A stretch of 64,000 nt of DNA from Gammaproteobacteria bacterium. GTDB taxonomy: Bacteria > Pseudomonadota > Gammaproteobacteria > JAPPPA01. Below the pieces are notes generated by a model. It saw only the letters and a program-made list of their open reading frames with translations, was not told the origin of the DNA and ran no database searches. The position numbers and the translations under genes were made by a program. The stretch lies in contig JAUHZK010000002.1 in the NCBI GenBank assembly GCA_030425645.1, positions 192,487-256,486 on the forward strand, written 5' to 3'. Positions 19,942 to 60,200 of this stretch are shown one piece after another (the first letter of the stretch is position 1; each line of letters starts with the position of its first letter).

Positions 19942-19958
19942 CGCGAACCTTATATTCT

Positions 19959-21191: not shown

Positions 21192-21194
21192 AAA

Positions 21195-22130: not shown

Positions 22131-22137
22131 TCTCACC

Positions 22138-22458
22138 ATGAGTAAAAAGAACGACGAACGCGTCAGCGTTACCGTGCAGGTAATGGACAAACCTTTCACC
22201 CTAAGCTGCAGTGTTGACGAACGCCCCGCATTACTTGATTCAGCTAATTTGCTTAATGAAGAGATGCGCAAACTAAAACCAGCTACCGGCAACCCGGATT
22301 ACGAAAAAATAGCTGTTGTCAGCGCCCTGAACTTGGCAGACGAACTGCTCAAACTGAGAGTTAGCGCCCAAGAACCGCCACGCTCTGCATTAAGTGCGGA
22401 GGTGGTGTCACAAGCCCAAGTAACGCTTAAAGCGGTTGCTGAGCAGCAGCGCAAATAG
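22138..22458 (+). CDS. zapA: Cell division protein ZapA
   Basis: 106 aa. VSVTVQVMDKPFTLSCSVDERPALLDSANLLNEEM is typical of ZapA. Confidence 0.9.
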   Translation: MSKKNDERVSVTVQVMDKPFTLSCSVDERPALLDSANLLNEEMRKLKPATGNPDYEKIAVVSALNLADELLKLRVSAQEPPRSALSAEVVSQAQVTLKAVAEQQRK

Positions 22459-22493
22459 CCACAAATGCTGACTAACGCCAACTAGGCCAATGG

Positions 22494-22499
22494 TATACT
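22494..22499 (+). promoter_or_regulatory. Candidate -10 element (TATACT) for the 6S RNA gene
   Basis: tggTATACTggcggc lies about 6-8 nt upstream of the predicted 6S RNA 5' end. No clear -35 was identified. Confidence 0.3.
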
Positions 22500-22504
22500 G
22501 GCGG

Positions 22505-22697
22505 CTCATCACCTGCGGTGTACGACAGGTTTGTCATAAACCCTTGAGCCTATTCACCGATACAGGGACTTGTCGGGGATGTGCGGTGTGCATGGCCGTT
22601 ATTTATGCGGTAAGCCTATGCCTCCCAATTTCAGGTCCCGCCTTGAACTTAACTGGTTCAAGGATATTGGCAACCAACGGCACAGGCGGGTGATGCT
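22505..22697 (+). ncRNA. ssrS: 6S RNA (SsrS) candidate between zapA and the 5-formyl-THF cyclo-ligase gene
   Basis: Conserved zapA-ssrS-ygfA synteny. The 3' portion cgCCUUGAACuuaacuGGUUCAAGGauauuggcaaccaacGGCacaGGCGGGUGAUGcuuucc closely parallels the E. coli 6S RNA 3' region (CCUUGAACCAAGGGUUCAAGG...GCCUGCGGCGGCAUC). The 5' CUCAUCACCUGC can pair with the 3' GCGGGUGAUG to form the closing stem. Ends are approximate. Confidence 0.65.
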
Positions 22698-23271
22698 TTC
22701 CTCCAACTCAAAAACAGACCTGCGTAAGCAGGGGCGCAGCGCTCGACGATCGCTAACAAGACCGCAACGCCGCCTCGCCGCGCGACGTCTTAACCAACGT
22801 CTAACGCCACTATTGCATCGCGGCCATCGTATTGGCCTTTATCTGCACTTTGATGGCGAGCCCGACCTACTCCCCTGCCTTAAACAGCTTTGTCGACGTG
22901 GCAAGCAAGTTTATGTGCCACAACTTCGGCCACAAGGGATGCGCTTTGTACCACTGCGGGCGCTGCGGCGGGCACGCGTAAACCATTACGGCATTATTGA
23001 ACCCAATCGCCACAGCCCCAGCGTCAGCAGCAAACGGCTACAAGCGGTGGTATTGCCCTTAACGGCGTACGACTTAAACGGGCAACGTCTCGGCATGGGT
23101 GCGGGTTACTACGACCGCGAACTTAGTTGGCGATCAAGCCGCACACATTGGCGCGGCCCGCTACTGATTGGCAGTGCTTGGTCCTGCCAAGCAGCCCAAC
23201 AAATACCAACCGAAAGCTGGGACATCCCGCTCAATCGACTTTGCAACGAACAGCAAACGCTGCGTTTTTAG
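22693..23271 (+). CDS. ygfA: 5-formyltetrahydrofolate cyclo-ligase
   Basis: GMGAGYYDR motif and conserved position after ssrS. The start is trimmed to the internal Met (MLSSNS), because the upstream part of the ORF is occupied by the 6S RNA. Confidence 0.8.
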   Translation: MLSSNSKTDLRKQGRSARRSLTRPQRRLAARRLNQRLTPLLHRGHRIGLYLHFDGEPDLLPCLKQLCRRGKQVYVPQLRPQGMRFVPLRALRRARVNHYGIIEPNRHSPSVSSKRLQAVVLPLTAYDLNGQRLGMGAGYYDRELSWRSSRTHWRGPLLIGSAWSCQAAQQIPTESWDIPLNRLCNEQQTLRF

Positions 23272-40784: not shown

Positions 40785-41207
40785 ATGAGGACTGCCGAAA
40801 CACACACAGCCCGCAGCGAATTCGGCCACTTAATGTGGCTTTACGAACGGAACTACCAACTCGCAAGAAACCTATTGGGAAGCATTAGCGAAGAGGCAAC
40901 CGAGGCCGAAATTCAAAGCAAAAATGATGATTTAGCCCTGAGTATCACCCTACTCGATAGGCAGCGGCACACTGAAACCTGGCATCTGACTTATTGGTTT
41001 CACGATGGCGATAGCGAGATAGCCGACCCTGATATTGAGCTCAAGCTTTATCACGACACCAAACAAGCCGAATGTTGGCGAGTCGGCAACCACGACCATT
41101 TAGAGCTATTGCGCGCCTTTAAAACCGAAGCCACCGACGCCCTAGAGCGCAAGTGGCAACGGAATATGATGCTGCATAAGTGGCTGCAGTATTTACTGCA
41201 GTCTTAA
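40785..41207 (+). CDS. DUF1249-family protein (YqiB-like)
   Basis: WLYERNYQLARNLL, TWHLTYWF, KLYHDTKQAECWRV and MLHKWLQYLL align with the E. coli YqiB conserved blocks. Confidence 0.8.
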   Translation: MRTAETHTARSEFGHLMWLYERNYQLARNLLGSISEEATEAEIQSKNDDLALSITLLDRQRHTETWHLTYWFHDGDSEIADPDIELKLYHDTKQAECWRVGNHDHLELLRAFKTEATDALERKWQRNMMLHKWLQYLLQS

Positions 41208-41318: not shown

Positions 41319-42330
41319 CTATTGCGGCACCCAACCCGCAGGGTTACTGGCATAGAGGTAGTTACCCGCAACTGGATCTAAACCGTTATCGATCGCTACA
41401 TGAACCCACGAGCTTGGCCCAAACACAACATCATCAGGACAATGCGCTGCAATATCTAAGTGGATGGTCAGTGAGCCCGTGTCAGCATTCGCTGTGTAGC
41501 TAGTACGATCAGCACCCAGCTCGACGTTACAACTGTTGCCGTCACTGCTGCCCGTGCTTGGGCCGTAACCGATCGTCATCCATGCCGTGGCATCGCCTAA
41601 TGGTGGCAGGTCTAGATCACCGTCACCACGAGTCACTGGGCCCGCGCCTTGGATCACTACGTCGATCTTCTCAGCACCGTCTAGGTTGCCGTTGATCGGC
41701 TCAAGGATCACAAGCGGTGTTGCGACACTAAGTAACGGGTCCGCTACGCGGCCGTTCGGATTGGTTGCGTAAAGGTAGTTAACACCCTCTTCACCATTGT
41801 CATCAACTGATACATGCACCCAAGTGCTTGGGCCATATTGGCTCACGCCGCAACCAGCAAGATCCATATGCAAGGTAATGTCTTCACCCGATACGGTGTA
41901 GTTAGCTGGATTGTCTAAACGCACTGAGCAGGCGTTGCCCTGCGAGCTGCTGGTGCTAGGGCCGTAACCTAAGCTGACCCAGGCCACAGCAGCACCTGGA
42001 ACTTGCAGAACGCCATTGTCGTCAACAACAGGACCGGCACCCGCAATCACGATATCCATGCCTTCTGCACGACCATCGCCGTCTTGATCCAGTCGTTGCT
42101 CCACTACATCAACCACTAATGGCTGACTGAATAATATGTCGCTTAACTCATTCTCGTTAGAACCAGGGCATACTACCCCCGAACTGGCCGGGTAAATCTG
42201 CACTTGGTGCTCTGCATCAACGATAAATCGAGTTCTATCCACGGGGCTAGCACCATCGACACACACGATGGCGTCATCACCAAGCTGCTCCAAGCTCAAA
42301 ATAGAGAAACCATCACTAATGACAGTACCT
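41319..42330 (-). repeat. Duplicated C-terminal module, about 165 aa x2 (...GYGPSTxSSxGNxC...GPSxWVHVxxDxxxxxxxNYLYAxNPxG)
   Basis: Two aligned copies ending ...VNYLYATNPNGRV and ...GNYLYASNPAGWVPQ. Confidence 0.6.
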
Positions 42331-45300
42331 ATAATTTCTTTGCTTTGGTCCAGCTGCATATGATCCAAATCAATGCTCGCGGCCGCCAAGTTGGTCAACG
42401 TTAGTGAAAAACCGTTACTCGTTTCTAGCGAGCCAATTTCCAGCCAATCTAAGCCCTGACGAATATATGGGGTGCTATGGCCACCAAGAGAGAACACTGG
42501 GCCACTAAGCCAAGGAATACCCCCTCCAACATAACCATCAACGATTCTCGGAACCGCCAACACGTGCTGCCCTTCGATGCTGAAAGACTCTGCCTCAATT
42601 AAACCGAAGACACTGGTATCTCCATGAGGCGCATTGCGCACAGCTAAGTCATTGACCCAATACGCACCATTCGGACCAAAATTCACTTGTTCTCTTTGCC
42701 CACCAGCCTTGGCATCTAAGCTCACACTATTCAGTGCACTTACCAACGCCGGAACGACTTTGTAGGTAACTTTCCGAGGCGCGTGATCTTTGCGGAATTT
42801 ATTAATGTATTCAGCACCATCGACCCACTCATCAATAATCGCTTGGGTGTAATGCTCATACCCGATAAAAGTCTGCATATCATGGCGATAACCCAGCTCG
42901 GTTAAACGTAACGCCATGCTCTCAACACCTGTGATAGGCACTAACTCGTCGAAGGTGCCGTGGTGGATCACCATAGGCACGTCACGAAGGTTCTCCAGCA
43001 GACGGTAACTCAACTGCGCGTTGGCCTGTCCACCCGCGCCGATGAAACAAGGGTTACCGGCACCTTGGCTCGGCACCTCAAAGTCACCGCCGCATAGAAT
43101 TTCGTCGTCAGGGCCTAAGCCCGTCCACGCACCCTGAGTGAGCGCGCCCGACACAGGGTAGCCAGCCGCAAACACGTCTGGGTATAAGCCGCCCATTAGC
43201 CATGTGCCATAACCACCCATCGAATATCCCGATAGATAGATACGACTTGCGTCGATGTTAAACAAACCAGGATTTTCAGGAATATCTGGCCCTTGATGGC
43301 CTTTAGCCAGGTCGGTACCGGCCACATCGGCAAAAACTTCCCAGAAATCTTGGTGAGCTTGGCCAACATACCACTGGCTAGTACCACGACCATGGGGTGT
43401 GGCGATGATGTTGCCCTGCTCCTCACCCAATTGGTGAATGATCTTTGGACTCCACGCGGCAGCCGAATGCACACGACCACCACGGTAGTGCATCCACATA
43501 GTGAGCGGTGCCGCAGTATTGCCACTAGAGTCGTAGTTACTTGGAATATAAAGGCCGTAGCGTTGGAAAACGTTGTCCTCAGCAAGCGACTCTTGTGAAA
43601 TATTCGCGCCAGCAATAAACAGCTTCTCGTGATAACCAACACTGGGCTCCATTGACTCTGCTACTGGATTTAGCAGCTTATTGACATCAATGCTTGCGGT
43701 GAAGGCGTCAACATTGCCTTCCCATAAGGCTAAGGCTTGTTGGCGGTCGTTATACATGCCCGCCACCGGCTCGTTGGGGCGATAAGCCAGGTTATAGAAC
43801 TCAGAGCCGTCAATATTAGTACTAACCAAACCAACGGTTACTACCCCGTCATTCGAAAGCTCTGCTAATGGCAGCTCTGCTCGCAAGATACCGCCCGCGC
43901 CTTCACTTGGGTCTGCCAATATGTTGCCATTAAGCAGTATCGCCGAATCAAAGCGGTCCGTTTTTAATCCGTACTCAGATAAATCGGCGGCACCCTCAGC
44001 ATTATCAATCAACAGCAAAACGTTGGCGTTTTCTGCGCGTTCTAAACGGGTGAATTCCACAGCCAGAGCCAGTGTATCGGCATCAACCGCGGACCATTCG
44101 ACACGGAACATGTCCCGCCCGTCAGCGGTCGCGTTGCCGTCGCCAAACCGATCTGGCACACCAGCCGGTTCTGGTGCACCAAACTGCTGTCCCAGCGCCT
44201 GCGATAAGGCATCTAAACGTTCTGCCCGGCTGTAGATAGAGCCGGCCAAGAGAGTTACCGCCAAACGGCGGGCGTCAGTGCCGTCATCAGCACCCCAGGC
44301 GTCATAGACGTAGTCATAGTAAACATGGCCACTATCAGAATAATGCGACTGCCCTGCCACCATGACCGCTTGCGGGTTATAAGGCTGACTTGAAGGCACT
44401 AAGCGGCCACGCTCCACCACCTCGCTCGCCAGTGGCAATCGATCAGGCACAGCAAACACACCAGTGCTAGCAGCAGAAGTGCGAATGGCCTCACACAGGG
44501 GTGCCAGCGGTAGTGCTTGGCATTGCGCCACTAAACCTTGTAATAGCTCTGCAGCTTCATCAATACCGACTAGGTCGTACAACAAGTTGTAGACGCAATT
44601 CACCCCACTTTCGTCAGGTGAGCAGCTACTGATATCAGTCAACTGGCCTAACGCCCCAGCGCAGACGTTCGGGTCTTGGGAGGCCATGCAGTTAATTAAC
44701 GATTGCTGCAGCCCCTCAGCGCTGCCGGCGGCTACCACCTTCAGATCAATCTCAGCAACCGTGCTGTCAAAGCCATCATCGGCAGTTAGAGCCAGACGAA
44801 TCGTGCTACCACAACCCGATACTAAGGCCTCACAGCTTGGCGCAGTAAAGCGCACCTCGGAACCACCATGCGGCTGCCGCAGCGGTGCTACATCACCACT
44901 ACTCCAAGTCAGCACGAGTGCATCAAAGTTCACATCGCTCACTGCCGCCGCCAACCGCACCGGTTCACCGGCAATCACGTTAAAGCTTTGAGGCATTTCC
45001 ACGCTAGGAGCCGTGTTGTTATTGACGGCTCCATTGTAGTCATCACGGGCAAAGCATGGGCCAGAGCCACAGGTGTTGATGAAATGGCCATCCGGCGACA
45101 TAAAGGCTGCTTTTTGAGCATAACCACGAATCGTACTACGTGGATCACTGTGAGGATCCCGGCCCCGGAATGGCGGCGTATTGTTGATTTCCGACGGTTG
45201 CGTACCGCCACCAAAGCCGCTGTCTTTGGGACCAATATCCCAATAAACCAATACAGAATTCTCGCTGTCACCCTCTGCGACCGGATCTAAGCCCCAAAAG

Positions 45301-48300
45301 GCATTATCACGAGCGTTGTGACGGCCATCCATCACCGCTTTAGCGCTGTCACTTGGGTCAGGAGAGTAGATGCGGCCGCCCATCGAGCGCGCACCAACAT
45401 CAGCCGAGATATCGGCCACTTGGTGGTCACCAAATGCCACGTGAATCAGTGCTTGGTGATCAGGCACGTCATGGCCTAAGTCACGAAATGCGCTGGCATC
45501 TTGCAAGTGGTTGGCATAACCATTGGTTTCTGCCCGGTCCCACAGCATTTGCATCATGCTTAGTACCAAACTTTGGTCGAGCGAATTCCGATAGCTGGCG
45601 TACATCACCGCACCGTAGCCATTGAAATCAACAGAACGGCGTAACAAGGTGCTGTAGTTCATACCGAACACGCCCAAGGTGCCACGCGTAATATCGCTAG
45701 AGGTGGCTAATACTGTGCCGCCCATAATGCCGCCTTGGCTGTTGCCGTCATAATAGACTTCGCTGTTATCAAACAGCGACGCACCATCTTTTTGGAAGGC
45801 CGGATGTGAAGCAAAACCGTTGTTGTGGCGCAAAGCGCGGGCAAGGTAATGCCAGTTAACCATGCCCTGCTGGGAACGATCAGCCAGCGTTGGGAAATGG
45901 GATACGTCAGTCAATATGGCAGCCACATTCGCGATATCACCGGTAGACATACCAATCCAATCAATCGCGCAAGGCATATAGTTTTCAGCGCGCGCAAAGT
46001 TCATCGCACTACCGCCGGTACCTTCACCTTTACCACCTAACAAGCCATGGCCGTATAGATTTGGACGAGCCGGGCCATCAGTAAATGCCTTCTGCGGAAT
46101 TGAGCACACAAACTCAACGGGCTGCTCAGCGATGCGGCCAAGCCGGTCTGGCAAGCCATCACCCCACAAACCACGATGATCCGGCTCATAGTTCAAGCGT
46201 CCATACACTTTAGGTAAGGCAGCCACGGTAAGCAGCTGATCTAAACCGCCAGCCATCTCGGCACTAAACGGCGCGCCGTTTTCTTCTGCAGTTGCAACTA
46301 CTTTACGTAACTCATCACAAAAACCCACCATCAACGGGTCGGTTGGCGCATCGCAGGCGCTATCTGGTGTTGTTAAATAACTCGGTACAAATAAGCGGCC
46401 ATAAATACGGCGTGGAATACTATCGCCTTCGCCACGATCTTCGACGCGATCAATGGTAAAGCGCGGCGCAGCACAGTTAGCGTCGGCTGACTCACTACCG
46501 TCGTAACTCACACAGTCGTTTTCGCCACCATTGGTGTCCAACGCATATAGCGCGTCATCGCGCATGTGCAACAAGCGACCGGCTAAGTTGCGGGTACTGG
46601 CTACGGTTAAGTCCCAAGCAAGGTATAAGTCACTGGTTGGGACATTTGCGGCCAATAGCTGTCCCAACAAGGCGCTCATATCGTCTGCACGACGGTTTAG
46701 CGCTGGGATATTCGTGCTCTCACCATCACGGAACACTTTGAAGGCTTCTGGCGCTTCAATTACGTTCAGATCCGAGTCACGCAGGTCGCGTAGCGCAACA
46801 ATATAAGTAGCGCCGTCTTTAAAGTTTTTAGCCGGACGAATCAACAAGGCGGGACCTGGGTTTGCCCATGGATCTTGACCGGGCAAGGCTGCGCCACCGT
46901 TGTCGTAGCACTGCTGACTAAACCCTTGCGAGAACTCGCGAGCATCATCTTGGCCACCCAAGCCGAATACTTCTCCGGCTCCATTACCCAAGCTACAGGT
47001 TTCAAAGGCGGTTCCGTTGGCGTCCAACTCTGCAAATACAGGATGACGCACTAAGCCGCTATCGGTTACTTCAAACACCATAACGGCGCTATCGGCCGGG
47101 AGGTCTTCGTTGTTCTGTAAGCGATCAAGCATTGGTACCGAACTGGCATGCGCATCGGTCACGTGCAAATCGACACCGGGCACCACGAGTTGAATCATCT
47201 GCCCTGGCGAGAAACCGTCATTCCGATTCCACTCAGTTGGGTCAATCGGTTTGCCGGCCGTATTGCGAGGCATAGCGGCGATATTGAAATTCACTCGCTT
47301 GCCGGTATCTGTGAAGTTATCCGGCGCAGTAAAGTGATTCGATGGGAATGGATACATGCAGTAACTAGGGTCAAGCATGTCACAACCCATCACCTCGGCA
47401 GCAATGGCATCCGCGGCCAAGTTCAGGTCGTAAGGCGCGTCCGCTGATGGCGCCTGTAGCCCAAATAGGCAAGATGGATCTGGGTTCTCTGCACAAGCTA
47501 TCAAGCCAGGATCGCGTGCGGTAGCCTCATTAAAAACCCCAGCTAGAACACAACTTTCTGCCATTAGATCATCAACACAGCTGGCCGCTAAATCTGGCGA
47601 CAAACGTTCTAGCACAATGGCTAATGGGCAGCGGCTATCGTCTGGCGCCACTTGGCATATCGCCGCAACGCTGGCTCCAGGAAGCCCTACATCACCGCTA
47701 TCTGCCTGTGGCGTTAATACGCCAACAGCGTTATCGACAGCAACCCAGGCACCTTGGTCATCCTCGGTGTATAGCGGCAGGCCAACCGTGCCTGTCACGT
47801 TCACAAGCGGCACGGTCACATCACGTGACGGCGAGCCAAAGAACTGTGGGTGGCTAGCGTAAAACAGCAACGCCAATTCATCGCCGGGTTCTAAACGTTC
47901 GGCAATACCCACCAAGTCAACGGTGTGTTGACCTAGGCCACGGACGGGCATCACTTGATCGTCGATTAAACCGTAATTCGGTAAGGCACCCGTCTTACGG
48001 CCCAAGCCTACAAATACAATGCTATCGCAGCCGACTGGGTTATCCATACCAGTCGCGTTACAGGCATCAAGCAGCTCATTGCCGCCAGCCAAACTACTGA
48101 TGGTGATATCAACAGAAGGCAAACCAGCTAAAACGGCGGGCTTTAAGATCATTCCAAGCGGCGCAGGTACTGGCAAATTGCCGGAAACATGAGGCTGGCC
48201 TGAAACCCCGTTGCTGGGTACAGGCGCGATCGGGGTTACATTGCGAGTGGTGTATTTGTTACTAGCACCACTAGCAATAACATCACTTTCCGCCAACGCA

Positions 48301-51300
48301 ATAGTGTCACCTTCGGTGCCTAACGCGAAGCAGGTGTCATCTAGCAGCTCTACCGTTTCACCGTCAGCTAACGGTTTCAGACGCTGATCAAACCATTTAT
48401 CGTCGTCAACATCACAACCGCCGCTATTCATCGGCGGCTTATCCGGCGCTTGCGCAAACGGTAAAGCATGGCCGCCGTTATGGGTGTAAAGCGACACGTC
48501 GGCGCCAGCGTCTAGTAGGCACTGGTAGTTCCACCAAGCTTCGTTGTAGTTAAACAAGGTGTCGACCATGCCCTGAGTAATAAGAACATCTAAGCCAGCA
48601 AAATGTGAGCGAGCGTCGAAGCTATTCGCAAGCTCGCCTTTATACTGTGACGGCACAAGATAGTCACCAATACCTGGCTTGCCAGCCACCCTATCGGGCA
48701 CGTTATAGCTCGCTACCGCATCAATCATCGGCACGGTGTCTGTGGTGTATTCAGGATATTGCATCGCCGACAAACCATTGGCGTCGCACCAATAACCAAG
48801 GCCGTGGTAATGGAACCAATCCAAGGCTTGGCGAGGAAATTCATTCAAGGCTGCGCCACGCGCTAAGGTCTCTTTGATAAACGGATCTTGCCCGTCTTCA
48901 TGCGGCAAACCACCACTGGAATGACCAACGGCTTCGCCAACGCCAATTAGAGCCACATCCCATAAAGACTTAACGGTGTCGCCCGGGTTAAGGCTATTCC
49001 GCAAGTCATGCCAAGTAATGTCTGGCGCAATCGCATCGAGTCGTTTTTTATGGTCAACGGTGGCAATAAGTAGCTGATAACCACCGCCATAACTGCCACC
49101 TTGAGCACCAACAACTAGGTTAATGCCATCGGCTTCACTAATAGCCGTTGCCGGGCGAGCGACAAACTCGCCATATTCAACGCTTTCAGGATCTTCATTA
49201 CGCCAAGAAAGGTAATCTAAGTTTTGCTCGGCCCAATCAAGAATCTGTAGCAAGTACTGACCTTCAAACTCCGGGTCCATGACGCGCACCGTGCCGCTGG
49301 TTTCACCAAAGCCGCGAGGGTCCCAAGAAATAACGGTGTAACCATTCTCTCGTAGTCCATCAAAGCCTGAGGTTGAACGCGAACCAGAATAACCCGGCCC
49401 ATGCAGCATTAATGGATGAGCGCCAATACCGTCATCACCACAAAGTACGCCAACCGGCTCAAGAACTTGGAAGCTCACTTCGTAGCCGTCATGGGTTGGC
49501 AGCTTCACTTGATAGCTTTGGTCTCCAGCAAGGTTTTGACCGCCACCAGCACAAGCCGCGTATTCCACCACAGGGCACCCTGCGTCGGTTGTTTCAACCC
49601 CCTCCATCGTGTTCGGACAAACATCATCGGCATTTGAAATGCCATCATTGTCATCATCTAATTGGCTTTCGGCACATCCATCCGCGTTAACGACGTCACC
49701 GGCAGTAGTGTCTTCACAGAGATCTACATCATCCTCTTTGCCATCAGCGTCAGAGTCTCTCTGCAAGGGATCGCTACCATCTTCAACCTCTTGGCCGTCC
49801 GAAACATTGTCGTCGTCCGTATCAGCATTGTTGGGATCGGTGCCACGCAACAACTCTTCTGTGTCAGATAAACCATCGCCGTCAGAATCGTTCAAAACGC
49901 CGCTCGAGCGCAGCCAAATTGGAGCAGAAACCAATTGATGGGCATCAGTTAGGCCGCAGTCTGCATCCTTCTTACAGACCACAACAAAGTGCCAATCTTC
50001 GTCCGCGCTTAATGACGTGCTTACTGTGTAAGACACACTTAACTCTGAGCCACCTTCGGCGACAGCACCTAATGGGGTTACCTCAGCGTCACTTGCTTCC
50101 GCATCGAAGCTACGGCCGCTAATCAAGACCACTTGGTCGCCTGCCTGGGCATTGCTTAAATTAATACTGAACTCAACCGCCTCTCTTGCAGATAGCTCAA
50201 CAATGCTGCCCATCCAGTCACTATTATTGGCACCGCTATTGATATAGAACCGCAGATCTCTCAATAGGTCACGATTACCATTTTCCGCATCTCGATCGGT
50301 GTAGCTACCACCTCTCACTGCCATCGTGCGGCGGTTGGCTAACGCCGCGTAATAATCTTTAGGGCTACGGCCTTTAGTCAATACAACTGTCTTGTGCTGC
50401 CCAGGACTAGACCAGTTAGTGCCGTGGTGATCCTCTGCTGCTACCGGAGACAGGTGCCAACCTTTTTGCAGGCCTTTGACGAACCACTCAATATCATCAC
50501 CACCGTTGATTTCCATACCAAAGACACGGGCATCGATTTGAGCGTCGATATACTCAAGGTCATTCCAATTGGCACCGCGGCCGATAGCGGCACCAGCCGC
50601 TGCGATCGCATGTGTATGCGGGAAGCCTCCATCAAACGGTGTCAATTTAGGATTGCCGCCGGGGTGATTAAAGGTAACCAAAGCGTCCGCACCACCGCCT
50701 TGGTCAACATCTTCTTTTAGCCAATTCCAAAATTGTTCCATGTCCAAATAGCTACCATCTATTTTGGTATTGGTAACGTTGGTAGAAAGGTAAACGTTGA
50801 GGTGGTTGTAATAGTCGTTGGTCCATTCAAAACCACGCATAGCCGTGAAGCCTGTGTAATTAATTTGGCCATTAACCTCTTCGGTGTCGCTACCCTCTTG
50901 CGCTTGTTGCAAGGTCGCGGCCCACTTCACGTAATCATCGTTACTTAAGAGTTGCTCGCACTTAAGCAACGTCACAATGCCGCCCAAGTCAGCGCTAGCG
51001 ACGGCGTTTGCCCAGCCACTTGGATCCTCGACTAGACCAATGCAGCTGGCGCTAGTAGTAACAGGAAGCTTTTCATTGTCTGAGTGTTCTGAAGACAACA
51101 TAAAGTCCAACTGCACGCCATTTTCCCCGGTGCGGCCAGCACGGAAATAGTCAGCAGGTATGGAATTAGGGTCGCCGTCTGAATAAGAACTGTGCTCATG
51201 TACTGCACCTAGCATATACATGAAGTCACCGTCGCCTTCTTCACCAACGTAATCTGGGCTCTCATCTACCAAACCCAGTTCAGGGGCTTCACAAAGAGGC

Positions 51301-54300
51301 GCTATCCATTGGTAACCACAGACTTCACGCAGTAAGTTGCGGGCGCTTCCAACCACAGCACACTCGGGGCTAAAGCCAGCTTCGGTGTCTGTACAACCGC
51401 CATCTGCCGCTTCTTCTGCGGTGAGCTTGGTAAGCTTTTCAGCTGCAGCGTTAGCGACCAAGCCGTCCGCAGTTTCGCCATAAAGGGGCACTCTAATCGT
51501 GCCACTGATTGCGACGGCCGGAATGGTCAAATCACGCGATGAAGTAATAATATGTTGTGGGTGATAGCCGTAAACCAGTAGCGCTAATTTGGCGCCAGCA
51601 TCAGTTTTCGCCAAGACCTCAGACACACCAATCATATCGATACTGTGTTCGCCTAAACCGCGAATAGGGATGATCTGGTCGTCGATCAAATCCCAATAGC
51701 CACTGCCATCGTTATAACCCAAACCAGCATAAACAATGCTGTCACAGCCTGTGCGTGTGGTAGGCACGCCACCGAACAAATCATCAGCTTGTTCACAGAA
51801 AGTTTCGTTTCCTGCCGGTGAACTTTGAGAAACTGGTACTGAATTGACGCTGATATCCAACCGAGGCATACCTGCCAACACAAGGCCTTCCTCGTCAACT
51901 TCAGCCAGTTCAATAACCGTTGGGCCTTTTGCCACCAGCGCCTGTGCTACAGGACCATTCGGAATAGGCAAATCGTTGCTGATAGTGAATGAGGTCGCTT
52001 CTGCTAGGTCAGCATCCGGATTACCTTTGTTGGCAATCAGCTCGGAACCACTTAACACCCAAGACTTATCACTATCTGAAATACAAACTTGGTTTTCGCC
52101 AGCAGGTAAACCTGAGTTGAAGTTATTGTTGCCACGCAACTTGCTATAGAGCCACGCTTTTTGGGCTCCACCTAAGCCATCACCATTGCAGCTACTGCCA
52201 TTACCTGATGAGTCTTGGAAACCAGGCACTACGCCGGTTGGTGAGCCATAGCTGGTAGGCTGCGCCGCATCAGGGGCCGCCAGCGGCAAAATATGGCCGT
52301 TTTGGTGCGTCATTAAACGAACATCACCACCTCGGGCACCGAAGCATTGGTAGTTCCACCAGGCTTCGTTGAAGTTAAACAAATTGTCCCGCATACCTTG
52401 GGCAAGTAAGACATCAACCGGCTGCAAGCCGTCGTCACCCTCGGCATCGACGACTCGCTCTGTGTTACGCGTACCAGGGCTAACCGTTAGGCCGCTTACA
52501 GTGGTGTTTGGATCAACTATGTCCCAAGTGCGATAGTTATACGGCATGGTGACGTCGGTTGGGCACCAGTAAGCCGAGCTGTTGTAGATGAACTGTTCAA
52601 TGGATTCACGAGGAAATTCATTGGTCGCCCCAGCACGTGCCAGCGTTTCGATAACAAACGGATCCAACCCTTGGTTACCACCGGTGTAACTGATGGCATT
52701 GCCCGCTGCGCCCATAAACAAACCCCAACCAGACTTAACCGCATCGCCGGGGTTAAATGAGAATGCCAAGTTATGCCAGGTTTGGTCTGGCACTAAGGCG
52801 TCCATACGTTGTTTAGGGTCAATATTGGCAATCAGCAGCTGATAAGCACCACCGTAACTACCGCCCGTCGCACCGACAACAAGGTTAAGGCCAGACTCAG
52901 CGTCAGTACGCTCATCTACTCGGCTAGAACCCGCAAAGCCTTCACCCTCTAGATGGGCGCTGGTAAGAACGCAGTTAGCACTATCCCGTCGGCATGCACT
53001 GTCATCGCGGAAGGCAGCAAAATCTAGGTTGGTTTCCACCCAATCCAACAGAGCGATTAAATTCTGACCTTCATGATCGGGGTCTAAAGCACGAATGCTG
53101 CCGCTACTATTGCCAAAACCGCGCTCATCAATCGTAATCACGATAAAGTCATCTAAGTAAGCCGAAAACGAATCGCGATTAGTCGATTTAGTACTCAGGA
53201 AACCATGACTATTCAGAATCACTGGATAGGATTCATCACAATCAATGTTTTCTGGCTCCATTACATAGAACGCAAAGGTTTCACCGTCCCCCGCCGCCGC
53301 TGGCATTATGACTTCATAGCCTTGGCCAGCCTCTAGGGCATTGCCGGTTGCGCAAGACGCTTGCTGATCAAACAGACAACCATCACCACCTACCGTTTCA
53401 CCTTCTGGGGTACCGGGGCATTGGTCGATGTCATCATCAACACCATCATTGTCATCGTCGTTATCACAAACGTCGCCATCGTCATCGCCGTCGGCATTGG
53501 CTTGGTCTGGGTTATCTACCAACGGGCAGTTATCGGCTCCGTCGTCCAAGCCATCGTCATCATCATCGTTGTCACAGGCATCACCCTCGGCGTCGCCGTC
53601 CGCATTTGCTTGATCAGGGTTATCAACTAATGGGCAATTGTCATTCTCGTCTCTAACACCATCTTCGTCAGCGTCGTCAGGGTGACCGGCATCACCGCCG
53701 CTCAAAGCACTTTCGGGGTCAATCGTCACATCAACAACAAACTCGCCGGCGCTGTTTTCAACCAAAGCGTATAGCGGCAAGTCAACCGAGCCATTAATGG
53801 TGACGAACGGCAAACTAGGATCCCGCGAAGCAGAAGAAGCAAACTGCGGATGCACCGCATAAAGCAACAGGGCCAATTCATCGCCCACCGCCAAGCGTTC
53901 TGCCACACCGGCCAATTCAACCGTGTGATCACCTAAGCCTCGAATCGGCTGTAACTGGTCATCAATCAAACTAAAGTTAGGCGCACCGGCAGCTTTACGG
54001 CCTAGGCCCACTAAAGTAATGCTGTCACAGCCGATCTGGTTATCCATGCCGCTTAAATCACAGGCCGCTTCATTAGCGCCATTTAGGCTGGCCACGGTCA
54101 CTGATAGGCGTGGAATACCCGCTAAAACAGCACCTTTACCCTCAACAAAGCCAAGCGATACAGAAACCGCCGCGTTACCGCTAGCGTGAGCGGCGCCGCT
54201 GGCGCCATTAGGTATCGGCAGTAACGGTGCCACCTCGCGATGCGTGTAATTCTCAACGTTCGCATTGGGCGCCAGAACCTCATCAGCATTCAGGGTAATA

Positions 54301-57300
54301 CTGCTGTTATCGCCTAGCGCAAAACAAACTTCTTCTTCACCAGGGTCTACTTCAGCTTCCGCTTTCAGGCGGGCATCAAACCATTCTTTCTGACTATAAG
54401 AACAACTGCCACTGTCGTTGCTCGCGTTGTCGGGCGCTTGCACATACGGCAGCACATGGCCACCGTTATGCGTGGCAACATCGACACTGGCACCGGCCGC
54501 ACTCAAGCACTGATAGTTCCACCACGCTTCATTGAAGTTAAACAGGGTATCGATCATGCCCTGAGTAATGAGTACGTCGAGGCCGTTGAAATGCTGAGCT
54601 GGGTTTTCAGATTCCACTAAACGGCCAAAGCCTAGGCGACCATTATCTTGTTTTGCAGGAACTCCATACACAGGGTTGACCTGCGACACCACCATCGGCA
54701 CTTGATCTTCACTGTATTCGGGGTAAGGCATGGTTGGTAAACCAGATGCTTTACACCAAGCACCGAAGCCACCGCGATATGCGAACCAATCTAGCGATTG
54801 ACGTGGCCAAGTATTGTCAGCCACGGCGCGAGCCACCGTTTCTTGAATGAATGGATCTTGGCCATCTTCCAAAGGCGACGTACCCGGGTTTTCTAACAAC
54901 GACGGCGAACCCGTCGCGGTGCCCATCGCGGCAAGGAATGCACCCCAAACTGTCTTAACCGTATCGCCAGGATTAAGGGCATTACGAAGGTCGTGCCAGG
55001 TAATATCAGGAATAATGGCATCTAAGCGTTTACGCTCATCCATCGATAGCGTGAGCAGCTGATAACCACCACCGTAGCTACCACCTTGTGCACCAACCAC
55101 CAAGTTAACGCCATCGGCGACACTGCTGCCTTCGTCAGTCATAGAGGCGCCAGCTGGACGCTCAACGAATGGGAATTGGCCGTTTCCGTTAGGCGTTTCA
55201 TCACGCCACGCTAGATAGTCGAGATTCTGCTCGGCCCAATCCAAAATTTGCAGCAGATGTTGGCCTTCGTAATTAGGGTCCATACCCCGCACTGATCCAC
55301 CCGCGGCACCGAAGCCATTGGGATCCCACGAGATCACGGTATAACCCGCGCGACGGTAGCTTTCAAAACCAGAGGTTGAGCGAGAACTGCTATAACCCGG
55401 CCCGTGCAGCATCAGTGGGTGTGCACCGTCAGCAATACGGCTGCAATCAATACCAGTGCCGTTTTCCGTATTGTCATCGCTGTCTAACGGTTCCAGTACT
55501 TGGAAGCTGTTGGCAAAACCATCTCGGCCAGGTAATACAACGTGATAACTACGGCCACCTTCAAGCAGCTCAGATGCTTCACAAGAAGCATTTTCAACCT
55601 CAGGCAGCTCCGGATCGACCACGCCGGTATCACCAAATACGGCACACACACCCTCCGGTAGATCGAGTGCTTGGCACTGTTCAGCTAGCGGCGTCTCTGG
55701 GTCCAATAAATCACAGAATTCAGCTGGACCGCCGACTTCGCGACACTGAGCCGCGTAACTACGTTGTACGTAATCGATATTGAAGCCGGCCATGCTAAAT
55801 AGGCAATCGCGACTACTCGGATCGTCTTGGCAAGCAACTAAGTATTCGGGCAAGGCATCAGCGGAGGCCGCGCTTTTGCCAAATAACGGCAAATAACCTT
55901 GCAGCCTAAGCAACGGTGCCGTTAATGGCCCCAGTGATACAAACTCCTCGTAGCCAGTAAACGGCACGATTAAGCCGGCATCGCCGCTTGCATCAAGATA
56001 ACGAAATTCTTCTTCTGGAATAATGTAGCCAAAACTGTTCTGCGTCAGCCCCAGCAACATTGTGGTTGCATTGTCTGACGGTAGACCTCGCAGCCACTCT
56101 CCAAAGGTACCGGTGGTTTCTCCGGGTATGGTAATAATTTCTAGGCCGTTTTCCGCACCACCGATGGTGATCCGGCTTACATCTGTAACAGCGTAAGGCG
56201 CTAGTTGCGGCAAGTACTTTGCCTGCTCTCCCAATAGGGGCAATTGATCAGTGTATTGACCCGCTTCGGTAAAGTCATAGTAGCCATTGAATGCACCCAA
56301 TAACCCTGCACCAACAAACAGTGAGTTAGTTACTGGTAGATACACCGTCTGATTAGATATCCCGACTACCGGTGCTAACGCTTTGACTTCACTAAAGTCC
56401 AACGCGGCCTCAGCCATGCCCTCACCTTTGCAGTGTTGGCTCTGATAAGCGCTGCTTTGTTCCGCATCGTAGTTTGGATTTACTTCACAGGGTTCGCCGT
56501 TACCACCAGAAGAGGCATCAGCAATGGGGCCATTAAAGAACAAGGCCACACCACCAATATCTTCTAAAGAGTCCGTTACGCCCAGCACGTAGTCTGGGTG
56601 TGGAATGCGAGGGTCTTCATTAATCGAAACCGGATGTCCACTAAACTGCATCAAGTGGGCAACAACCTTATTCGGCGTTACTAAGCTATTAGCTTGCAGC
56701 AAGGTTCCCAGTACGTCGGTTTCGGCGTTAGGGTCGGTTTGTTGAGGTCGGCGATAGCGATTAAAGTCTGACATATCACCTTGAGAAACCGTCAGCTCAA
56801 CAGGCTCTAGCGCCTCTACCGCGGCAGCAACGGCAGCGGCTGCCTGCGTCACCAATACATTTTCGATCCAATCCTGCGGCACGCCGCCCCACAAGCCCTG
56901 CAAGTCAGCCCCTGCATGAGTATGCGTTTGTCCAAACACGATATGGCTAGATGGGATGCCGGCTGCATCAGTAATAGCGTTGCGCACTTTCTGCTGGATG
57001 ATATTGCCGGCACCGACGGCATCTAGTGTGACAAAGGCGACTTTTTCCTCATCGCCCGCACTGCCAGGATTAGCAACCACCATCGCGCGCACCCAAGTTT
57101 GCTCAACACAATCTGTTGCCGCACTAAAGGTAGAGGCGTCGTACTCACTTTGATCGGCCAACAGACAAGGTTGCTCTGCAGGTTGTGTCAGCTGGTCACC
57201 AAAACCACCGAATGGGTCAGGGAAATTCTGGGTGGGATCAATACCGAAGCCGCCCAAATTGAACTTTTGTAGATGTCTTGCCCCAGCAATGCGAGGCTCA

Positions 57301-60200
57301 GATACACCGGCGATGTGCGCCGCAGATGGGGTCACCGGCAAGCGGCTGGCACCAACTCGTACGGCGGCATCAGCCGTTTCGTCGTCAGTAATCGTCACCG
57401 TCGTCGTCAGCTCGGCAGACAAGGTCGCGTTGCCATCTGTCTGCCAGAGCTGCACGGTAAATTGTTCGGCGAATTCATTCAGCGCGTCGTCATTAATAGT
57501 TACCGTCAGCTCCGCGCCACGGTCACCTTCAGCAAACACCACACCTTCTAGCCATGTGTTCGGATCGCCGTTGGCCGCGGCATCTCCCGCTTCACCAAAG
57601 TCGACGCCAGCGCCCTCCGCTGTGCCTTGACGCAGAGCAATGGACACAACCGTCTCGGCCACGGCGGGCTTATCCAGCACTACGCTAATGCTAACCATGG
57701 CCGCACTTTCCAGTACCGTCACTTGATCGGCGGCCATCGCCGCCTTCGGCAACTGGCTCTGGCCGCAGCCGGCAATATTGTCGCCATCGTCCGCCGCGGT
57801 ACCTGGACAGTTGTCATCGCTATCATCGACACCATCGTTGTCATCGTCGGCGTCACAAGCATCGCCACCATCACTAGCGCCGTCAGTATTTGTTTGCTCA
57901 GCATTGGCTACTAGCGGGCAGTTGTCCGACTGGTCGTCAACACCATCATTGTCGTCATCGCCATCACAGGCGTTGCCGCCGTCATCAGCACCATCGGTGT
58001 TGCTTTGATCAGCATTCGGATCCAATGGGCAGTTATCTTCTTGATCGGCTACGGTGTCATTGTCGTCATCGGTATCACAGGCATTGCCTCCGTCGGCAGC
58101 GCCATCGGTGTTGGTCTGATCCGGATTACTCGTTAGTGGGCAATTGTCAGCACCGTCAGCAACACCGTCTTCATCGTCATCACTGTCGCAAGCATTACCA
58201 CCATCGGCTAAGCCGTCACTATTCAGTTGGCCGGGGTTAGCATTTACTGGACAGTTATCGTCACCATCAGCGATACCGTCTTCGTCGTCATCATTGTCAC
58301 AGGCGTCGCCACCATCAGTCAGGCCGTCAGTGTTCGACTGTTCGGCGTTATCTATTAATGGGCAGTTATCGTCCTCGTCGGCAACACCATCTTCATCATC
58401 ATCATTGTCGCAAGCGTCACCACCATCATTTAGCGCATCGGTGTTCGCTTGGTCTACGTTCGTTACCAAAGGGCAGTTATCTGAACCATCCGCAACACCA
58501 TCTTCGTCATCATCCTCATCACAGGCATCACCGCCATCATTGAGGCCGTCAGTGTTCGACTGTTCGGCGTTATCTACTAACGGGCAGTTATCGTCCTCGT
58601 CGGCAACACCGTCTTCATCATCATCATTGTCACAGGCGTCGCCACCATCATTTAGCGCATCGGTATTGGTTTGGTTCTCGTTCGTGACCAAGGGACAGTT
58701 ATCTGAACCATCTGCGACACCGTCTTCGTCATCATCCTCATCACAGGCATCACCGCCATCATTGAGGCCGTCAGTATTGGTTTGATCAGCATTAGCGACC
58801 GTTGGACAGTTGTCTTCTACATCAGCGATGCCATCCTCATCTGAGTCGGCAGCCGGCTCATTGTCGTTAATGGTCAACACCGCCCGGCTGGGATCTGCCA
58901 ACGACGTCTGGCCGTGTTCGTTTTCAATACGGGTCAGTGCAACGGCAAACACTTTATTGGCATTGCTAACCGTATTGCCACGAATGCGAAGCAAGAGCTG
59001 CTGCTGCATTACACCAGCCGGAAAATCTATCTGGCCATCGCTAACGGCATAGTAGTCAGCGCCGGCGATAGCTGGCTCATCCACGCCACTCGCAGTGACA
59101 GATTCGGTACTGTAAAAGACGCTAAAGCTACTCGCAGGGTCACCTTGACGCTGCACATTCAAATAAACAGGCTTGGCACCAAAATCACCCTCGTCCACCG
59201 TTACGTTATCGGTGGCTAGCAATACCTTCGCAACCGGCTCAACAGGTGCTAATGAATCGTCATCAAAGATCACTGCGGTGGCTTGATCGCGGATGAACTG
59301 CACGTCATCAGAGGATGACAAGCGCAGACTTAGAAACTCGCTGTTTTCTACCTCGTCATCATTGATAACGGCGAGCTCAATAGCCTCCTCAACAACACCT
59401 GCGGCGAAGGTTAACTGGCCATCGTTTGCAACAAAGTCACTTGCACTTGCCGTTTCGGCAACGAAGGCATAGTCCACCGTGACCGCCTCAAGCGTATTCC
59501 CCCTGCGCTGGACTAAGATTTTAATGCTCTGCTCGTCCTCATCAACAGCGGCATCGGCCACCGTAAACTCCGGACGCAAACCAGTTTCACAAGAACCATC
59601 TGGCTCGGTACCGTTTTCGATATCCTGTGAGGAACAGAGAATATGTTCGAGGGCCTCTTCTTGGCCAACCAAGCCAGGACGCCCCTGGCCCGTATGCTCT
59701 GCGAGCAACTCACTTAAGCCATTCTGGTTGTGAAATTCGTTCGCCGGCACATCAAACCGTAACGCGCTGAAGGCTTCACCCTTTGCTGCGTCAACCGTAG
59801 CTTGGCTGATCTGAATACCGTTCGTTGGGTCGCCATCAGCGTCCAGCGTTAACAGCAGACGACTCTTATTAATAGCCGCATTGGAAATGTTTGAGTCGCT
59901 GTCTAAGTCTTGCAGACGAACCACCGGGGCAGCAGGCGCGTCACCCAAGGGGATATCGCCAAGGCTAAACGCCACGTGATCACCATCAGTGTATTCAAAG
60001 GCCCCTGTTGACGAGGTTACAGCCCCGGTTCCTTGACCGTTTAAGACGTAACCAACATTTGCGACCGGGCTGTCGATTAGACGGCCAGTTTTCTGCTCGG
60101 TAGGATTATTATCTCCACTGCCACCAGCACCCCCGCCGCCACAGGCCACGAGAATAAGAGACAATGCTGCAAGCAGAACTGCACGTGTCAAAGCGCACAT
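41319..60200 (-). CDS. Giant (6293 aa, 18.9 kb) multidomain lipoprotein. It combines Calx-beta modules, thrombospondin type-3 Ca-binding repeat arrays, a neutral-ceramidase-like domain, 3x CocE/NonD (S15)-like alpha/beta-hydrolase domains, a PHP-like phosphoesterase domain and a PHB-depolymerase-type esterase domain.
   Basis: A single uninterrupted ORF. Lipobox LILVAC at the N-terminus. See sub-features for the motif evidence. Purine-rich RBS-less start at 60200 with a 290-nt AT-rich upstream region. Confidence 0.9.
   Translation of the reverse strand: [6293 protein letters not shown]
42900..43700 (-). other. PHB-depolymerase/feruloyl-esterase-type alpha/beta-hydrolase (esterase) domain
   Basis: MWMHYRGG...[32 protein letters not shown] (anchor at about 43205-43240), a GxSMGG nucleophile elbow with a following second hydrophobic motif typical of the esterase_phb family. 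Confidence 0.55.
47600..49560 (-). other. CocE/NonD (S15)-like alpha/beta-hydrolase domain copy C (about 75% identical to copy A around the active site)
   Basis: [21 protein letters not shown]...[12 protein letters not shown]...[43 protein letters not shown] (anchor at 49081-49127). Confidence 0.6.
49600..49920 (-). repeat. TSP3-like Asp-rich repeat array no. 3
   Basis: [56 protein letters not shown]...[15 protein letters not shown]. Confidence 0.7.
50225..51215 (-). other. PHP-like (polymerase/histidinol-phosphatase) phosphoesterase domain
   Basis: [13 protein letters not shown] (anchor at 51177-51210) resembles PHP motif I (HxHTxxSDG). Downstream FNHPGG and EDHHG His clusters are consistent with PHP metal ligands. 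Confidence 0.45.
51400..53390 (-). other. CocE/NonD (S15)-like alpha/beta-hydrolase domain copy B (more divergent)
   Basis: [10 protein letters not shown] ... [18 protein letters not shown] (anchor at about 52840-52900). Confidence 0.55.
53400..53690 (-). repeat. TSP3 repeat array no. 2 (about 3 units)
   Basis: [80 protein letters not shown]. The plus-strand shadow is His/Arg-rich. Confidence 0.8.
53700..55565 (-). other. CocE/NonD (peptidase S15)-like alpha/beta-hydrolase domain copy A
   Basis: [10 protein letters not shown] ... [18 protein letters not shown] (nucleophile anchor at about 55085-55130), a GxSYxG nucleophile elbow typical of the S15/CocE family. Confidence 0.6.
55600..57080 (-). 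other. Neutral/alkaline ceramidase-like domain
   Basis: [16 protein letters not shown]...[16 protein letters not shown] (anchor at about 56910-56945) parallels ceramidase VVFVNLDACM...[25 protein letters not shown] parallels the ceramidase VPGEFTTMAGRRL block. Confidence 0.6.
57435..57702 (-). other. Third Calx-beta-like module
   Basis: [21 protein letters not shown]...GVDFGEAGD...[23 protein letters not shown] (anchor ELTVTINDD located at 57487-57513). Confidence 0.5.
57760..58845 (-). repeat. Thrombospondin type-3 (TSP3) calcium-binding repeat array no. 1, about 10 paired units of about 38 aa. At DNA level it includes near-identical 228-bp tandem copies.
   Basis: Reiterated [37 protein letters not shown]. 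The plus-strand shadow ORF 58144..58785 shows long exact repeats, indicating high nucleotide identity between copies. Confidence 0.85.
58940..59500 (-). other. Two Calx-beta-like modules (giant protein aa about 235-420)
   Basis: [50 protein letters not shown] and [46 protein letters not shown] show the Calx-beta pattern (DY/DF...G.L.F..GE....I.I.I.DD). Confidence 0.6.
60138..60200 (-). other. Lipoprotein signal peptide of the giant protein ([20 protein letters not shown], Cys+1 followed by a Gly-rich linker)
   Basis: n-region with Arg, h-region, and lipobox L-V-A-C. Confidence 0.75.

Follow-up and report, generated by a model that had tools for sequence, protein, structure and literature searches.

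The window analysed here is a 64,000-nucleotide stretch of contig JAUHZK010000002.1 from a Gammaproteobacteria bacterium, and the gene under study is a giant open reading frame (ORF) that runs without interruption from position 41319 to 60200 of the window on the minus strand, encoding 6,293 amino acids (aa) plus a stop. Within it lie three modules of the S15/CocE-NonD type, called A, B and C in order from the N-terminus. An initial annotation, made from the sequence alone, had placed three paralogous CocE/NonD (S15)-type hydrolase domains in one gene and had read them as an intragenic triplication; all the motifs it quoted are indeed present in this single minus-strand ORF, and the observation itself is confirmed, while its interpretation is only partly supported, as set out below. 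The N-terminus of the giant protein, MCALTRAVLLAALSLILVAC followed by GGGG, is a lipobox-type signal that, read by eye, fits the pattern [LVI][ASTVI][GAS]C, and the product is predicted to be a lipoprotein facing the surface or the periplasm. After the lipobox come an N-domain, a Calx-beta domain, ten TSP3 repeats, a second Calx-beta domain, a ceramidase-like domain, S15-A and the TSP3 repeats of the A-B linker; from there the order continues with S15-B, a CehA/McbA-like metallohydrolase, TSP3, S15-C and a domain that we call X, and then with domain Y, an S9/PHB-depolymerase-like esterase and C-terminal domains (Table 1).

Table 1. Features of the giant gene and its flanks, with window positions.
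Feature	Residues (aa)	Window positions	Strand	Support or remark
S15/CocE-NonD-type module A	1518-2151	53748-55649	-	PF02129 E 2.8e-9, 37.5 bits; module HMM 723 bits
Module A active-site residues	Ser1708; Asp1884; His1915; Tyr1603	55077-55079; 54549-54551; 54456-54458; 55392-55394	-	Tyr1603 putative oxyanion residue
S15/CocE-NonD-type module B	2259-2914	51459-53426	-	divergent subtype; PF02129 E 7.5e-10, 39.4 bits, profile positions 6-261/262
Module B active-site residues	Ser2448; Asp2605; His2636; Phe2334	52857-52859; 52386-52388; 52293-52295; 53199-53201	-	Phe2334 at the Tyr position
S15/CocE-NonD-type module C	3526-4151	47748-49625	-	PF02129 E 7.4e-12, 45.9 bits
Module C active-site residues	Ser3703; Asp3880; His3911; Tyr3604	49092-49094; 48561-48563; 48468-48470; 49389-49391	-	
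Block B + CehA-like + TSP3b, ~1,300 aa	~2257-3558	49527-53432	-	absent from P0331 by global alignment
10-repeat TSP3 array	446-800	57801-58865	-	Pfam and motif scan; 111-nt and 222-nt tandem DNA repeats
A-B linker, three TSP3 calcium-binding repeats	2152-2258	53427-53747	-	Pfam, motif scan; 108-nt tandem DNA repeat
Linker before C, bacterial TSP3-like repeats	3431-3525	49626-49910	-	PF18884 TSP3_bac, motif scan
Neutral/alkaline ceramidase-like domain	941-1517	55650-57380	-	PF04734 E 3.5e-5, below gathering score
CehA/McbA-like (PHP-type, HEHSSYSDGD) putative metallohydrolase	2940-3430 (~490 aa)	49911-51383	-	NF038032 matches of homologues
Domain X, ~830 aa	4258-5084	44949-47429	-	conserved GHGLL, GNSQGG, GDHQV, CQKSHF
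Domain Y	5085-5590	43431-44948	-	no family assignment
S9/PHB-depolymerase-like esterase domain	~5591-5830	42711-43430	-	GYSMGG; PF00326 E 1e-7
DUF1249 gene after the giant gene		about 40785-41207	+	opposite strand
Penicillin-amidase-family gene	947 aa	37822-40665	-	

All three modules exceed the gathering score of PF02129 (Peptidase_S15), which is 23, and all retrieved homologues carry precomputed PF02129 matches. With limits set by a hidden Markov model (HMM) built from the family, the modules measure about 630-655 aa, and a tiled BLAST of the protein against itself recovers three homologous stretches of about 620 aa with E-values between modules from 1e-87 to 1e-28, which excludes chance similarity. 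The nucleophile codons lie 2,220 nt (A-B) and 3,765 nt (B-C) apart, just where anchors had been proposed near 55.1, 52.87 and 49.1 kb with spacings of 2.2 and 3.8 kb (Table 1). HPLMLHGPGY occurs at aa 1594 and again at aa 3595, with YPVILNSHGF at aa 2325 in B; further along, NLVVGAQGGSYGGGYQLL is found at aa 1699 and 3694, and NLVVGATGGSYGGAYQLL at aa 2439. The extent originally given for the three domains, 47600-55565, does hold modules A to C, save that A starts about 85 nt beyond 55565.

Modules A and C are 57.7% identical over 614 aligned residues, against 41.5% for A-B and 39.3% for B-C, so that B is the more divergent copy, as had been proposed; the identity of about 75% over more than 150 aa reported for A and C describes their best 150-aa window, around the nucleophile (74.7%), and not the full aligned length. 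Divergence between A and C is greatest in the cap, at 42% identity versus 62-76% in the cores. At the DNA level the identity of third codon positions among the modules is 0.35-0.40, and the Nei-Gojobori proportion of synonymous differences (pS) is 0.73-0.76, i.e. saturated, so the nominal dN/dS ratios of 0.07-0.2 between modules are not meaningful; of the comparisons that had been suggested for the copies, pairwise alignment gave the identities above and the dN/dS analysis was uninformative. By blastn the modules are at most 71% identical over 250-490 nt, with short patches of 80-87% at the active-site blocks, and a blastn search for a tract of gene conversion or recent duplication among them found none.

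Catalytic integrity was judged on an alignment of A, B and C with 135 dereplicated homologues (n = 138), drawn from a search that covered 5.8 billion proteins. The Ser of GGSYGG and the His of GH are invariant in 138 of 138 sequences and the Asp of QGMxDxLF is present in 137 of 138, with A, B and C among them; all three residues are also kept in each of the 92 modules checked (92/92), which include those of other giant proteins. Four Cys are invariant across the alignment, and A, B and C have all four. The catalytic elbows had been described as preserved rather than decaying, and this is upheld: the family alignment was examined for loss of the triad in two of the copies, and the triad is present in all three. 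Each S15 module is a complete unit of about 630 aa, in which an alpha/beta-hydrolase core, a helical cap and a C-terminal beta-sandwich go together with the GxSYxG elbow, the four invariant Cys and a Ser-Asp-His triad that is intact.

Module C was the one modelled, and the fold of A and B is taken from their alignment with it. The AlphaFold2 model, built on the 138-sequence alignment, has a mean predicted local distance difference test score (pLDDT) of 90.9 and a predicted template-modelling score (pTM) of 0.93, and consists of an alpha/beta core, a helical insert and an all-beta portion at residues 435-633. Foldseek against the PDB gave full-length matches to, in order, 8YZO/8YZN ('PaL'), cocaine esterase (CocE), alpha-amino-acid ester hydrolase (AEH), a S. 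aureus CocE/NonD hydrolase and PepX; the best of these, 8YZO/8YZN, has an E-value of 7e-20 and a template-modelling score (TM) of 0.67 normalised to the target, and CocE, AEH and PepX align over 700-780 columns with TM 0.45-0.56 and E 1e-12 to 1e-17. The family profile, run against PDB sequences, finds 8YZO ('Lipase') at E 5e-11, with GISYGAG opposite GGSYGG. Together, the full-length structural matches and the profile match support membership in the CocE/NonD (S15) fold family. Pfam PepX_C gave no match on any of the three modules, and single-module phmmer searches of PDB sequences with A and B returned only noise, without recovering CocE, AEH or PepX.

The modules resemble the known members of this family (MEROPS S15, PF02129; Rhodococcus CocE, Acetobacter/Xanthomonas AEH, Lactococcus PepX) in their full-length fold, their GxSYxG elbow and the order Ser-Asp-His, but share only 10-16% identity with CocE, AEH and PepX in the Foldseek alignments; they are secreted, carry the four invariant Cys and sit inside a multi-domain lipoprotein, whereas the known S15 enzymes have a single catalytic domain and are mostly cytoplasmic. 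The PDB entry 8YZN/8YZO (deposited as 'Lipase', 505-506 aa, released in 2024) is the best match by both structure and profile and shares the DxRGFxxSxG block, although 8YZO is 16% identical to the module and the profile alignment spans about 150 residues of the N-terminal core. Neither the sequence searches nor the literature yielded a characterised member of this S15 subfamily, and literature searches on 8YZN/PaL and on CocE/NonD lipases found nothing relevant.

The phylogenetic evidence bears directly on where the three modules came from. Neighbour-joining (NJ) trees on Kimura distances were built with 200 bootstraps for the stand-alone homologues and 150 once the modules of giant proteins had been added. 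A and C were exclusive sisters in 0/200 and 0/150 bootstraps and A, B and C were monophyletic in none; A and C share one subfamily, with B outside it, in 200/200. Module C is 73% identical on trimmed columns to the stand-alone protein P0006 (67% by BLAST) versus 64% to A, and is thus nearer to stand-alone proteins of other organisms than to its neighbour in the same gene. Each module moreover has its own orthologue elsewhere at 150/150 bootstraps: A pairs with module 1 and C with module 2 of P0331, and B groups with P0359 and with module 1 of P0334, at about 70% identity on trimmed columns. The modules are therefore three old lineages, A-type and C-type in one subfamily and B-type outside it, and do not represent the triplication within the gene that had been proposed. 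We consider it probable that the region is part of a giant cell-surface lipoprotein that is a mosaic of independent hydrolase modules; the gene would have been put together, by fusion and reshuffling, from secreted hydrolase genes or modules that already existed, with acidic TSP3 arrays as linkers.

The nearest relative of the whole protein, P0331 (6,117 aa), is a collinear orthologue that has A and C only and is without the B + CehA-like + TSP3 block. Its identity to the protein here is 88% in S15-A, 86% in the ceramidase-like domain, 84% in domain X, 83% in the S9-like domain and 79% in S15-C, compared with 69% in domain Y, 68% in the N-domain, 62% in Calx-beta and 53% in the TSP3 linker, which marks the catalytic domains (79-88% vs 53-69% elsewhere) as the most constrained. 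P0331 also has five fewer TSP3 repeats, and TSP3 repeat number is on this comparison evolutionarily labile. The B block does not stand out in composition: its GC content at third codon positions (GC3) is 0.46-0.49 vs 0.49-0.53 in the flanking domains, and a search for recent acquisition by composition found GC and GC3 unremarkable and flanking direct repeats of at most 14 nt.

The strongest rival to the mosaic is that a TSP3 + S15 cassette was duplicated twice inside the gene and that the copies then diverged, or subfunctionalised, in place. It draws on the presence of three homologous modules in one ORF, two of them after TSP3 repeats, on the common subfamily of A and C that excludes B, on the tandem arrangement of two stand-alone S15 paralogues at another locus (L004), and on the doubling of X or CehA domains in other giant proteins. 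Against it stand the tree topologies, the separate orthologue of each module and the saturated synonymous sites, and also the make-up of the supposed unit. A TSP3 array was said to precede every copy, and one does lie directly before B (repeats proper at aa 2176-2260) and before C (aa 3438-3530); module A, on the other hand, is directly preceded by the ceramidase-like domain of about 580 aa, with the 10-repeat array (repeats proper at aa 452-800) about 720 aa further upstream. The stand-alone S15 protein P0040 has a TSP3 tail at its C-terminus with which the A-B array aligns, so that this array may belong to A (hydrolase, then TSP3) and not lead into B, and in P0334 and P0359 module B is accompanied by a CehA-like domain and not by a TSP3 leader. 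The CehA-like domain of about 490 aa also stands between B and C here, and the longest exact match shared by the TSP3 linkers flanking the B block is 14 nt. Unit composition thus differs from copy to copy, duplication of a TSP3 + hydrolase cassette is not supported and, as a recent event, is contradicted, and we regard duplication in place as unlikely. A deeper version, in which the ancestor of A and C was duplicated in an ancestral giant gene and fission then gave rise to the stand-alone forms, is still conceivable in the strict sense. As to the arrays themselves, the DNA of the 10-repeat array has a 111-nt unit, nested in a higher-order repeat of 222 nt (88% identity), and the repeat at 53438-53677 has a unit of 108 nt.

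The mosaic reading is set in context by the relatives of the giant protein. A profile search of 1.84 billion cluster representatives returned 2,451 family members at E <= 1e-3; no three-S15 protein occurs elsewhere among the best 150 of these 2,451 representatives, where the maximum is two. Besides P0331, proteins with two S15 modules are P0332 (5,189 aa), P0334 (3,842 aa), P0330 (3,310 aa) and P0333 (1,865 aa), and giant proteins with one include P0342 (6,206 aa), P0350 (5,218 aa) and P0349 (4,188 aa). At least sixteen representatives of 2,000 aa or more combine one or two S15 modules with ceramidase-like (CER), X and CehA domains in differing orders: P0350 reads CER-X-Y-S9-CehA-S15 and P0352 S15-CER-X, P0342 has two X domains and P0334 two CehA-like domains. 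The other giant lipoproteins (P0331, P0342, P0350, P0332, P0334, P0359, P0349) draw on the same domain set as the protein here (N-domain, TSP3, ceramidase-like, S15, CehA-like, X, S9-like), but vary in domain number and order and have at most two S15 modules rather than three; the lipobox pattern recurs in P0331, in most of the other giant proteins and in A-type stand-alone homologues. Related giant proteins derive from metagenome-assembled genomes (MAGs) of Spongiibacteraceae and Solimonas. Their clusters contain the NCBI entries MDP3859662.1 (P0342) and WP_344939284.1 (P0349), and the automatic NCBI name of the giant relatives is 'neutral/alkaline non-lysosomal ceramidase N-terminal domain-containing protein'.

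Stand-alone versions of all the catalytic segments of the giant protein occur elsewhere. Two word-indexed searches brought up 209 homologues, and all of them (209/209) have a single module, a length of 570-1,100 aa and Sec or lipoprotein signals, many also with TSP3 or PKD tails. The stand-alone S15 proteins of marine Gammaproteobacteria (Zhongshania, Spongiibacter, Marinobacter, Sinimarinibacterium, Solimonas, Nevskia) are members of this family, with 34-67% identity over the whole module, and differ in having one module each, where the protein here has three fused with other enzymes. Their database names are 'CocE/NonD family hydrolase', 'thrombospondin type 3 repeat-containing protein' or 'alpha/beta fold hydrolase'. 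Many family members bear evidently wrong automatic names, among them 'ABC-2 type transport system ATP-binding protein', 'pimeloyl-ACP methyl ester carboxylesterase' and 'Alpha-agarase', of which the last probably stems from the TSP3 repeats.

A locus from another metagenome (L005; ENA ERZ27294940 k141_1008214, 3851-23186) is the unfused counterpart of part of the giant protein. It holds five adjacent co-directional genes for large secreted proteins, which include a ceramidase-like protein (1,993 aa), the S15 protein P0040 (1,061 aa), a DUF6351 protein (1,184 aa), an X-domain protein (1,285 aa) and one more; each ends in a TSP3 + PKD tail, and a gene for an AraC-type regulator lies upstream. 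That the giant protein is a fusion of one conserved operon was considered and ruled out: synteny is partial, and in L005 only, and the other stand-alone homologues lie in unrelated neighbourhoods, which indicates module shuffling and not fusion of one fixed operon. Elsewhere, at L009, a GDSL lipase gene adjoins a stand-alone CehA-like gene. At L010 (8548-13102) genes for a rubredoxin and a rubredoxin-reductase-like protein stand directly upstream of the one for the stand-alone S15 homologue P0063; rubredoxin and its reductase are typical partners of alkane hydroxylases, and this gene context hints at a link to hydrocarbon or lipid metabolism.

Given its divergence, module B invites the question of whether it is still an enzyme. 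Of the 98 alignment columns with a conservation of 90% or more across the external homologues, A retains 94, C 96 and B 84, where the 135 external homologues retain 87-98, so that B falls below their minimum; it also sits on a long branch. The HGxGY block reads HGPGY in A and C, with Tyr at its last position, and NSHGF in B, with Phe there. In a weak hhalign comparison (probability 7%, E 0.005) with a CocE sequence, which we take as a lead only, this position lies opposite the CocE oxyanion residue Tyr44, and in the same low-probability alignment the module nucleophile lies opposite CocE Ser117; the structure of a Tyr44Phe CocE mutant is in the PDB (1L7R). On these grounds one or more modules, B most of all, might be a catalytically dead pseudo-enzyme that serves for binding or scaffolding, in which case only some of the three modules would be enzymatic. 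Yet B keeps Ser, Asp and His, the Tyr that follows the nucleophile Ser and all four invariant Cys, its substitutions at conserved columns are largely conservative, and Phe is a normal subtype state in the family (83 Tyr, 52 Phe and 3 Leu among the 138). Further, the blocks ILNSHGFLS, TGGSYGG and QGMRDNLF are identical in both B orthologues, which are about 70% identical overall, and this points to selection on a distinct active site, that is, to a conserved subtype and not to decay. We therefore hold a dead module to be quite improbable.

The same giant gene is found on independent Logan contigs from different sequencing projects (SRR32932197 and ERR3428544), each encoding a 5,676-aa partial product with all three modules included, and both contigs end only at one shared point inside the 10-repeat TSP3 array. 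An assembly chimera that joined paralogous genes through repetitive TSP3 DNA, which the metagenome source, the tandem DNA repeats of the TSP3 arrays and this common break point might suggest, is very unlikely, since the B block and all three modules lie within the 5,676-aa products of two projects with the only break in the 10-repeat array, an 18.9-kb stop-free frame would not be expected of it, the linkers around the B block share so little exact sequence, and P0331, P0334 and P0359 independently show the junctions A-TSP3, B-CehA and TSP3-C-X.

The remaining domains are of several kinds. The ceramidase-like domain is 46-69% identical to its counterpart in seven other giant proteins. The CehA-like segment, directly downstream of B, has no direct Pfam or NCBIfam match; it is assigned through homologues, with NF038032 scoring 132.9 bits on P0315 (cut-off 80) and below threshold on P0210 and P0225. 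Stand-alone homologues of the CehA-like domain, about 500 aa long and up to 51% identical to it, have a wide distribution that extends to Actinomycetota. The S15 + CehA-like pair recurs in P0334 (B-CehA-TSP3, then an A/C-type module; 59% identity) and P0359 (B-CehA; 60%) and, in more distant B-CehA-type versions, in P0343, P0335, P0330 and P0214; in these unrelated proteins the CehA-like domain always comes immediately after an S15 module, which suggests a functional two-domain unit. Searches of Pfam and of PDB sequences with domain X, also as a profile of 8 sequences, gave no match, and NCBIfam gave a weak one to VolA/Pla-1 phospholipase (E 0.0087); eleven other large proteins contain the domain, P0342 in two copies, and in L005 it has a gene of its own. 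Its GHGLL, GNSQGG and GDHQV motifs suggest a further serine hydrolase, and X may be an undescribed serine-hydrolase family. The S9-like domain also matches NF050058 (E 5e-13) and TIGR01840 (E 1.4e-7), both below cut-off. The C-terminal part, aa 5831-6293 (window 41322-42710, minus strand), holds two similar segments, …VVIAGAGPVVDDNGVLQVPG…WVHVSVDDNGEEGVNYLYATNP… and …VVIQGAGPVTRGDGDLDLPP…WVHVAIDNGLDPVAGNYLYASNP…; over these last ~460 aa the identity to P0331 is only 34%, and the ~1,400-aa C-terminal extension of P0331 is a different one.

Around the giant gene lie genes for a penicillin amidase, DUF1249, GntR, CitMHS, a molybdopterin oxidoreductase, ATP sulfurylase and DAHP synthase, and these neighbours are chromosomal housekeeping or metabolic genes. 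The penicillin amidase is 71% identical to a counterpart in an Oceanococcus MAG. A genome scan with it found one 4.6-kb contig of that MAG (L012) only, with no giant gene beside it; an unrelated ORF precedes the amidase there, and the giant gene is not syntenic. Scans of genomes and metagenome contigs with the CehA-like middle domain found no orthologous giant genes.

Read as a whole, the giant protein is probably a surface-tethered multi-esterase/lipase. The theme comes from the nearest structure, deposited as a lipase, from the ceramidase-like, PHB-depolymerase-like and, weakly, VolA/Pla-1-like neighbour domains, and from the GDSL lipase gene at L009. A lipid-anchored polypeptide would hold several esterase/lipase-type active sites next to one another on spacers stiffened by Ca2+, and complementary activities could then attack a complex substrate with ester or amide linkages (lipid, wax, polyester or ceramide-like particle material), with no enzyme lost by diffusion. 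Module B would act beside the metallohydrolase domain with Phe for Tyr at the putative oxyanion position, and A and C would combine near-identical active-site blocks with a different cap. The cap commonly influences substrate choice in alpha/beta hydrolases, and these differences suggest that A, B and C differ in substrate or bond preference.

Several points weigh against this reading of origin and function. The trees are NJ and not maximum-likelihood trees, the deep branching of the A/C subfamily is poorly resolved, and the nearest sister of C shifts among replicates; the absence of B-CehA from P0331 would fit an insertion here as well as a deletion there. The synteny of L005 is partial, with a DUF6351 gene that is absent here and without a CehA-like domain, and other stand-alone S15 genes occupy unrelated contexts. 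For B, the Phe at the position aligned with CocE Tyr44 and the few conserved columns make reduced or altered catalysis possible. The AlphaFold2 model of domain X (12-sequence alignment) has a pLDDT of only 47.9. Finally, S15 includes true peptidases (PepX) and amino-acid ester hydrolases, either of which activities is conceivable here too, and 'esterase/lipase' is drawn from neighbouring domains and one depositor's name.

Multi-glycoside-hydrolase enzymes for polysaccharides (Caldicellulosiruptor CelA-type enzymes; the alpha-agarase AgaA, with TSP3) likewise carry several catalytic modules on one secreted or surface polypeptide, with repeat linkers, shuffled among paralogues. In contrast to these CelA-type/AgaA enzymes, the modules here are alpha/beta-hydrolase-type serine hydrolases and metallohydrolases and not glycoside hydrolases, and no carbohydrate-binding modules were detected in the giant protein. 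What is new here is the architecture, the kinds of domain being already known; giant shuffled multi-hydrolase lipoproteins carry automatic names only in the database entries examined. We suggest, tentatively and as a possibility on which we would not yet rely, that marine/aquatic Gammaproteobacteria (Oceanococcus/Nevskiales-like, Spongiibacteraceae) have a so far undescribed class of poly-hydrolase lipoproteins, giant (2,000-6,300 aa) and combinatorially shuffled, of which this gene would be a member. Such proteins would arrange a fixed set of secreted lipid/ester-active modules (S15-like lipase/esterase subtypes, the ceramidase-like domain, the CehA/McbA-like metallohydrolase, domain X and the PHB-depolymerase-like esterase) on Ca2+-binding TSP3 spacers, as a surface-anchored functional analogue of the cellulosome, made of one polypeptide, for lipids, waxes or polyesters; the three S15 modules would then be subtypes with distinct functions, and their subfamily would be a new family of lipases with PDB 8YZN as a relative.

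The analysis also carries a caution for annotation, in that repeated domains within one gene need a phylogeny before they are labelled 'intragenic duplication'. Separate genes (L005), two modules (P0331, P0334 and others) and three modules here form a natural series for comparing the gain per added module, and the series points to an uncharacterised, widespread S15 subfamily, that of the 2,451 cluster representatives. The orphan domain X is a further candidate for a new hydrolase, and might be of use to biotechnology where lipids, waxes or polyesters are broken down in oil- and particle-associated marine bacteria. If the modules are active, bacteria would build very large surface multi-esterases by shuffling whole enzyme modules, a strategy that is well known for polysaccharide breakdown and hardly documented for lipid or ester substrates.

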